From the NCBI RefSeq assembly GCF_003334405.1, contig NZ_QOWM01000051.1: a DNA stretch of 895 nucleotides; one strand, given 5' to 3'. The position numbers and the translations under genes are program-made. This DNA comes from Escherichia coli (GTDB lineage: Bacteria > Pseudomonadota > Gammaproteobacteria > Enterobacterales > Enterobacteriaceae). The notes beneath the pieces were generated by a model. That model made no database searches, was not told the DNA's origin, and worked only from the letters and a program-made list of their open reading frames with translations. Position 1 is the first letter of the stretch. Each line of letters begins with the position of its first letter. This document shows positions 1-895 of this stretch, in pieces.

Positions 1-895
1 TGCGGTCCGTCTTCTCCGTCAGCCTGCCGTATTCATCGTGGCGGTAGACATAGTGCGCATCCTCCGCGATGCGGTTATCCGGCCACACTGTGAGTGTACT
101 GTCCGGGTGCAGCTCCGGGTCCGGCAGCCGGTTGCCCGCCGGGTCCGTGGCATACGGGATGCGGATGTCCAGGTCTGGTGCGAGGGTGCGCACACTCTCC
201 AGCCTGCCCGTGGCGCTGTAGCCGTATTCCCGCGTCTGTCGCGGGCCGCTGATGCGCACCAGGTCGCCGTTGTCACTCCACCCGTAGTCACGGTCATATA
301 CCAGGCTGTTCAGGTGCTGGCTCTGTAACTGGCCTGCGGGGGTGTATGTGCTGGTCAGTTCGTATGCGGCATTACTGCCTGCCATGCTGCCGAAGCTGCG
401 CACCGTCTCACGGTGCAGCCTGTCCCGCGTATACTCGACCAGCGGCGTCCCGCCCAGCTTCATTCCCGCCAGGTAACCGCTGCCATACGTCAGCCACTCC
501 ACCGGCGGCAGGCTGTCCGGCGTGACGCGGTTTGCCAGCCCCTGCTCGTTGTATGCGTGTTTCGTCTCATGCTGCCACAGCAGTTCCCCCGTCTCCGGGT
601 TCTCCACCGTCTGGCATTCGCCGGTCAGGCGGCCTTTATCGTCATAGCCATAGTGGACGGCAACACGGTGGCCTTCGCTCAGGTGGCTGATGTCTGTCAG
701 CCAGCCGTGGCCATCATACTGCCACTGCTCTGCCGGTTCGCCGTTCACCGTGCGGTGAGTGATACGGTCCGATTCATCGTAGTACCAGAGGATGACAAGT
801 CCCTCATCCTCACTCTGTGTGAGTTTTCCGGTCAGGTCATAATGATAACGTTGCGTCCGCCCGTCAAAGCCGCCCTGCTGTACCAGCCGGTCCAG
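1..895 (-). CDS. rhs: Internal fragment, partial at both ends, of an Rhs-family YD-repeat core protein (polymorphic toxin, T6SS-associated or contact-dependent class). Complete codons occupy 2..895; position 1 is the first base of the next codon.
   Basis: Hand translation of the reverse complement starting at position 895 gives 298 codons with no stop: [298 protein letters not shown]. It contains repeated YD-repeat motifs (Y-x-Y-D-x-x-G-R/K-L-T) at roughly 20-25 residue spacing and is rich in Tyr (21), Asp (25), Gly and Trp (7), as expected for an Rhs/YD shell. From memory it closely matches the conserved E. coli-type Rhs core (rhsA/B/C/D family). The paralog cannot be assigned because the cores are near-identical and the distinguishing C-terminal tip is not in the window. 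No database search was run. Confidence 0.92.

Follow-up and report, generated by a model that had tools for sequence, protein, structure and literature searches.

An 895-nt stretch of Escherichia coli DNA (contig NZ_QOWM01000051.1 of assembly GCF_003334405.1; this whole stretch is called the window here) encodes the core of an Rhs protein. It raises the question of whether the gene is complete, what lies at its N-terminus, and whether its product belongs to a T6SS or to a stand-alone element. The original prediction placed the 5′ end of the gene beyond position 895, expected a PAAR-like or other secretion-targeting domain there, and held that linkage to a T6SS could not be decided from the window. 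All three parts of this prediction are supported by the comparisons below. The window very probably lies in the interior of a complete E. coli gene for an Rhs polymorphic toxin whose core is of the RhsD type, and for this toxin we propose delivery by a T6SS.

Results

The window is an internal segment of an rhs gene

Minus-strand frame 1 is open across the whole window, with 298 codons and no stop, and the other five frames contain 1–16 stops each. A fully open frame of any kind arose in 48 of 20,000 composition-preserving shuffles. GC accounts for 63% of all bases and for 78% of those at third codon positions; YD motifs abound in the translation, which gives weak Pfam RHS_repeat matches (Table 1). 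Codons 665–962 of the 1426 in rhsD of E. coli K-12 MG1655 (b0497; product WP_000014739.1, 1426 residues) match the window at 100% identity and correspond to nucleotides 1993–2887 of the gene. Judged by sequence, the gene is E. coli rhsD or a gene-converted paralog at the yncH locus, within the Rhs family. The K-12 rhsE pseudogene was rejected as a source, as it is 95.4% identical and matches positions 1–676 only.

Positions 780–895, on which the original prediction centred, are ordinary YD-repeat shell; a start codon, an N-terminal domain and a secretion signal are all absent from them. An Rfam E-value scan of the window returned a single chance-level match (snoR113, E 0.21), and we therefore conclude that it holds no RNA element. 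The plus strand carries antisense ORFs of 40–96 aa, which most likely reflect the high GC content of the coding strand on the other side rather than genes.

Table 1 Coordinates of features in the window and in the compared genomes (L-numbers denote regions of those genomes)
Feature	Sequence	Coordinates	Strand	Basis or remark
rhs internal segment, RhsD-type core, YD-repeat shell	window	1..895	-	open frame and K-12 rhsD identity
Flagged stretch, RhsD residues 665-702	window	780..895	-	translation; weak Pfam RHS_repeat matches
YD/RHS repeat, window-translation residues 19-52	window	740..841	-	Pfam PF05593, i-E 0.02
YD/RHS repeat, window-translation residues 60-92	window	620..718	-	Pfam PF05593, i-E 0.0017
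YD/RHS repeat, window-translation residues 206-236	window	188..280	-	Pfam PF05593, i-E 0.0052
Antisense ORF (example)	window	38-328	+	
Match of the window	K-12 MG1655	L001:12001-12895		100% identity
rhsD gene	K-12 MG1655	L001:10607-14887	-	
Stretch profiled for GC	K-12 MG1655	L001:10400-15200		
Displaced tip and H-repeat debris	K-12 MG1655	L001:9018-10567		two short ORFs, PRK14710
rhsE pseudogene	K-12	L003:14661-16697		2037 nt
Truncated genes at tRNA-Asp	K-12	L009:14149-14781		between ykfM and yafV
Match of the window	Ec-2844	L004:4303-5197		100% identity
yncH-locus rhs	Ec-2844	L004:2966-7189		called 'rhsD' by RefSeq/PGAP
yncH-locus rhs	ECCHD184	L005:6001-10224		called 'rhsD' by RefSeq/PGAP
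ydcD	ECCHD184	L005:5536-6017		annotated frameshifted
rhs sharing 100% tracts with the yncH-locus copy	DA33133	L006:3607-7887		
yncH-locus rhs	DA33133	L007:5001-9224		called 'rhsD' by RefSeq/PGAP
tRNA-Asp site	DA33133	L008:4985-38332		T6SS cluster, vgrG, rhs, ISAs1
T6SS-cluster rhs	DA33133	L008:29457-36396		interrupted by ISCro1
IS1B insertion near rhsD	C1	NZ_CP195942.1 631164-632841		

The gene continues about 2 kb beyond the window

In the K-12 reference, the rhsD ATG lies 1,992 nt past position 895 (window-equivalent 2885–2887), with no in-frame stop on the way, and the gene runs on for about 1.39 kb left of position 1 before its stop codon. The 5′ end thus lies some 2 kb to the right at the end of an uninterrupted frame, where the original prediction had looked for it. 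With an ATG this far beyond position 895, the window does not come from a truncated fragment; a frame that terminates shortly past 895, the outcome that would have spoken for such a fragment, is absent from every full-length reference. A relative with a truncated N-terminus is known in the K-12 rhsE pseudogene. Nine codons upstream of the rhsD ATG there is an in-frame stop, and no alternative start lies between the two. A longer ORF encoding a full PAAR domain was considered as well and is excluded by this stop.

RhsD begins with a single PAAR-like repeat

Extended rightward on the K-12 reference, the frame leads from its start codon into a one-repeat PAAR-like head followed by a DUF6531 plug. 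The head comprises 47 residues (MSGKPAARQGD...MTSGN) with one PAAR repeat, and spells a literal P-A-A-R at residues 5–8. Pfam PF05488 (PAAR_motif) aligns 18 residues of it (3–20) with model positions 52–69 of 70 at E 0.15, and NCBIfam NF033420 (T6SS_PAAR_dom) aligns residues 2–29 with positions 68–94 of 94, at 14.4 bits where the cutoff is 124. In a PDB search, residues 2–29 fall on the last repeat of VCA0105 (4JIV residues 67–93 of 93, E 0.02); the same search also returned SalCis10, 4JIW (c1882) and 8GRA. The predicted PAAR-like N-terminus is therefore present, both in the literal motif and in the alignment with the last PAAR repeat. A canonical PAAR domain is not detected, as the head stays below the threshold of PF05488 and of NF033420. 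Nor is there a three-repeat PAAR cone of ~95 residues; the last repeat alone aligns, and 47 residues precede the plug. 'PAAR-like' is thus the correct description on these alignments and 'PAAR domain' is not; what the latter label, often given to such proteins, denotes here is one repeat scoring below the thresholds of the PAAR models.

The remainder of the protein has the layout of an Rhs polymorphic toxin. The motif PVNPLLG begins at residue 48, directly after the head, and a Pfam search with residues 1–664 finds the DUF6531 plug at residues 46–123 (E 2.6e-18) and eight significant RHS repeats (PF05593). TIGR01643 matches RhsD with 158 bits, and the NCBIfam model NF041261 (RHS_core) covers residues 1–1258 with 2787.7 bits against a cutoff of 2000. 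The RHS core is further marked by PF03527 and TIGR03696 matches in the C-terminal part, and the core end motif PxxxxDPxGL is present as PLNPLQQIDPMGL. DUF4329 forms the variable C-terminal tip, a putative toxin. Base composition follows this division, with 60–68% GC in the rhs core, 31–40% in the tip and 31–45% in the tip and downstream region together; this sharp GC mosaic of core and tip is that of a classical Rhs composite.

rhsD stands alone at ybbP

No vgrG, hcp or tss gene occurs within 12 kb on either side of K-12 rhsD. Upstream, a 430-bp spacer (33.5% GC) separates the gene from a terminator-like hairpin that follows ybbP, with ybbA beyond. A promoter scan of this spacer found 2 sites against 1.7 expected from shuffles, and is therefore uninformative. 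Downstream lie ybbC (YbbC/YhhH family, immunity-like), an orphan fragment of an Rhs core end and tip, and H-repeat/ISAs1-like remnants. Two short ORFs in K-12 that match the two halves of one NCBIfam model (PRK14710) fall in a stretch of the displaced-tip and H-repeat remnants that typically accompany Rhs elements (Table 1). Strain C1 has an IS1B insertion in the segment that runs from the ybbP 3′ end across the spacer to the rhsD 5′ end.

The ybbP–rhs junction is found in 2855 of 5426 complete E. coli genomes. The ybbP locus is a fixed, neighbourless rhs locus, and rhsA–D have been described as 'orphan' genes outside vgrG islands (PMC7216683).

A second copy at yncH adjoins vgrG

In some genomes, the 5′ end of rhsD occurs at a second site, apart from ybbP. 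In strain WCHEC025985, the rhsE locus between yncH and pptA contains an rhs gene immediately downstream of a canonical vgrG (with Phage_GPD, Phage_base_V and Gp5_trimer_C domains). The product of this rhs gene and RhsD share 96% identity over residues 1–1258, with the first 207 residues identical and a different tip. The ATG of the yncH-locus rhs lies 66 nt downstream of vgrG, and a vgrG–rhs junction with the RhsD-type head is present in 2648 of the 5426 complete genomes. Of the neighbouring genes that the original prediction proposed to examine, the ybbP copy has neither vgrG nor hcp nor tss, and the yncH copy adjoins vgrG.

The K-12 rhsE gene is a 5′-truncated pseudogene with no vgrG upstream, and other strains carry vgrG and a full 4.2-kb rhs between yncH and pptA. 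A K-12 derivative matches the vgrG–rhs junction query in its rhs part only. Where it is intact, the yncH-locus rhs has a 47-residue head and a plug identical to those of RhsD, and the delivery part as a whole is 96% identical. The two differ in tip and immunity gene, with RhsE-CT and ydcD (or another tip, in WCHEC025985) at yncH, and DUF4329 and ybbC in rhsD.

Apparent gene conversion places the same 895 nt in both contexts

In strains Ec-2844, ECCHD184 and DA33133, the vgrG-linked rhs is a mosaic that includes a tract of 2.3–3.2 kb 100% identical to K-12 rhsD. The 5′ boundary of the tract lies at gene nt 277, 460 or 1177 and the 3′ boundary at nt 3460 in all of them, and beyond it follow an RhsE-type tip and ydcD. 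Since the window (nt 1993–2887) falls inside the converted tract, it is 100% identical in both contexts. It matches Ec-2844 without a mismatch (Table 1), one of the 100% 'rhsD' matches (in ECCHD184) is in fact the vgrG-linked copy, and DA33133 carries the identical window twice, at ybbP and in a vgrG-linked mosaic rhs at yncH. Unconverted yncH-locus genes are 94–95% identical to the window. The claim that these 895 nt cannot tell a T6SS-linked from a stand-alone copy is thereby confirmed. Identity is no guide to the locus of an internal window of the Rhs core, even within one genome, because apparent gene conversion equalises kilobase tracts of both copies.

In DA33133, the tracts shared at 100% lie in two loci about 1 Mb apart. 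The tracts common to the ybbP and yncH rhs genes look like products of gene conversion. RefSeq/PGAP names the yncH-locus rhs 'rhsD' in all three mosaic strains; the tip and downstream gene of this copy are of the rhsE kind, and the name 'rhsD' is therefore not indicative of the locus. The putative immunity gene ydcD is annotated as frameshifted in ECCHD184.

The window probably derives from the stand-alone rhsD at ybbP, as in K-12. It matches K-12 MG1655 and many other genomes at 100%, the ybbP–rhs junction is widespread, and the terminator-like hairpin and AT-rich spacer sit 5′ of rhsD there; the same 895 nt in vgrG-linked copies nevertheless mean that identity alone is no proof of this locus. 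A tentative alternative is that it comes from the vgrG-linked rhs at yncH (rhsE), in which, in some lineages, a 2.3–3.2-kb tract has been converted to the sequence of rhsD. The 100% matches in Ec-2844 and ECCHD184 and the position of the window within the mosaic boundaries speak for this origin, and the lower identity of unconverted genes at that locus speaks against it. Record counts, which take the best-matching place per record and include partial query coverage, bear on both origins. At a threshold of at least 99% identity, the window alone matches 1302 records, the window with the K-12 rhsD tip 480, and the window with the RhsE tip and ydcD 203, so that the yncH origin has fewer records on its side than the ybbP origin (203 versus 480). 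If the source is the ybbP locus, K-12 RhsD is identical to it in all respects.

Secretion machinery is complete in DA33133 and missing from K-12

The T6SS cluster at tRNA-Asp in DA33133 is complete, with tssA, B, C, E, F, G, H, J, K and M, and also holds icmH/dotU, tagH, two hcp genes, vgrG and rhs. The Rhs protein of this cluster has the same short head (MGGGKPAARQGD...SPVNPLLG), and the cluster VgrG is 90% identical to the VgrG of the yncH locus. No separate PAAR gene is annotated in this T6SS-2 cluster, and two small hypothetical proteins have no PAAR match; the RhsD-type head appears to be the sole PAAR-like element annotated there. The cluster rhs itself is interrupted by an IS66-family element (ISCro1), and the functional Rhs cargo of DA33133 may therefore be the stand-alone and yncH copies. 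RhsD encoded at ybbP in this strain matches that of K-12 with 100% identity.

At the same tRNA-Asp site, where DA33133 has about 33 kb of DNA, K-12 has a truncated hypothetical gene that abuts a truncated ISAs1 transposase, and this arrangement is the deletion scar of the T6SS. K-12 and B strains are known to lack a T6SS (PMC6730261; PMC3032704). RhsD is most likely not exported in K-12, because the T6SS cluster and the vgrG of the yncH locus are both missing. Reviews assign the 'neighbourless' Rhs-CTs to a family with kinship to the T6SS2-cluster Rhs, and describe Rhs-CT effectors as active in interbacterial antagonism (Ma et al. 2017b, per PMC6730261).

Discussion

Proposed delivery of RhsD

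Homology and gene context suggest how a protein of this layout would act. The shell would enclose the toxin tip, the short head would attach RhsD to the tip of the VgrG spike, and a T6SS-2-type machine would fire the spike into bacteria nearby. With no adjoining secretion gene, the ybbP copy would need a VgrG encoded elsewhere, which could come from the T6SS cluster at tRNA-Asp or from the vgrG island at yncH. Dependence of RhsD on a T6SS would follow by analogy with its paralogs and with Tse5, and the co-occurrence of rhsD with a T6SS cluster and vgrG in DA33133, together with the literature on related Rhs-CTs, lends it indirect support. Counted against delivery by a T6SS is the head itself, which fails both PAAR models and amounts to one third of the cone.

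An intact rhsD in K-12 could reflect recent loss of the machine or a role independent of the T6SS. It is possible, though we consider it rather unlikely, that in hosts without a T6SS, such as K-12 and B, the gene is a recent relic, or that its tip and immunity gene act as an intracellular toxin–antitoxin-like pair expressed from internal promoters. Either would fit the missing T6SS cluster and yncH-locus vgrG of K-12 (see also PMC6730261). The identity of K-12 RhsD with the protein of T6SS-positive DA33133 fits recent loss of the machine, and Salmonella rhs tips have internal promoters and behave as type II toxin–antitoxin modules (PMC7043789). The whole 4.3-kb delivery part is intact, however, and a toxin–antitoxin role would not need it.

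If T6SS delivery is taken as the working explanation, the geometry of the spike tip becomes a question in its own right. That a head of the RhsD type alone caps or docks on VgrG, in a non-canonical geometry, is a speculative idea to which we give little weight. Were it true, it would imply asymmetric binding by one blade, or three Rhs cocoons per VgrG trimer, and a single VgrG type could serve as carrier for whichever of a cell's five to nine neighbourless, mutually interchangeable Rhs toxins is at hand.

A surface ligand-binding role was an early proposal for Rhs. Export or display of RhsD independently of the T6SS, for instance as such a surface protein with a vestigial PAAR-like motif, is highly improbable: the failure of the head in PAAR models and a ybbP locus that never adjoins secretion genes would suit it, but the N-terminus has no obvious signal peptide by eye, the same head adjoins vgrG in roughly half of E. 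coli genomes and occurs within the T6SS cluster itself, and the closest solved relative, Tse5, is a T6SS effector.

Rhs elements of E. coli, rhsD among them, have been known for decades, and all of these results agree with published descriptions and are in that sense ordinary. Their value lies mainly in correct annotation. Automatic annotation labels the ybbP and yncH copies alike as 'rhsD'.

Comparison with known Rhs and PAAR proteins

The best PDB match to RhsD residues 1–374 is the shell of Tse5 from Pseudomonas aeruginosa (8cp6_B, E 6.8e-22), a chain that begins at Tse5 P48 (PVNPMLG), aligned with RhsD P48 (PVNPLLG). Tse5 (PA2684; PDB 8CP6) has the same order of parts as RhsD, namely a 47-residue head, PVNP(M/L)LG, the DUF6531 plug, a shell of YD repeats and a C-terminal toxin, which in Tse5 is encapsulated. 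Its 47-residue PAAR-like fragment is required for secretion, and the protein rides on VgrG1c; it is cleaved at K47|P48, the DUF6531 plug holds residues 30–47 within the shell, and residues 1–29 are disordered even in cryo-EM (PMC10684867). The Tse5 head has been termed 'cryptic PAAR-like' (PMC7376260) and described as having no PAAR motif (PMC9637101), whereas the RhsD head has the motif in literal form. Further differences are the residue that precedes the cleavage site (K in Tse5, N at the equivalent position in RhsD), the toxin (pore-forming in Tse5, DUF4329 in RhsD) and the gene neighbourhood, with tse5 adjoining vgrG1c and rhsD neighbourless at ybbP. By analogy with Tse5, RhsD would be processed at N47|P48. 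A PDB search with RhsD residues 1–56 did not return the Tse5 N-terminal fragment; homology of the two heads is therefore not demonstrable by sequence, and their equivalence is positional, given by equal head length and the same motif that follows.

Canonical PAAR proteins (VCA0105/4JIV and c1882/4JIW) align with RhsD residues 2–29 (SGKPAARQGDMTQYGGPIVQGSAGVRIG) through their third repeat. They form a cone of three repeats and ~95 residues, whereas RhsD has one repeat and scores far under the model cutoffs.

A homologous Rhs shell and plug are also found in Pseudomonas protegens RhsA (7q97_A, E 4.5e-9). This protein (7Q97), Photorhabdus Rhs1 and Enterobacter RhsA belong to the prePAAR/Eag class of Rhs proteins, which are delivered at the VgrG tip. 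Members of the class reportedly carry a prePAAR motif, then transmembrane helices and a full PAAR domain, with an adjacent Eag (DUF1795) gene, as Ahmad et al. are said to have set out in 2020. The RhsD segment AARQGDMTQY resembles the prePAAR motif, and is followed by only ~35 Gly/Pro-rich residues before the plug. No Eag/DUF1795 gene is annotated around K-12 rhsD or around the copies in WCHEC025985, Ec-2844, ECCHD184 and DA33133. The N-terminal fragments of prePAAR/Eag-class Rhs proteins measure 25–45 kDa and contain predicted transmembrane regions (PMC10684867); RhsD appears to have neither. The N-terminus of RhsD, distinct from both canonical PAAR proteins and the prePAAR/Eag class, is best assigned by its layout to the Tse5 type.
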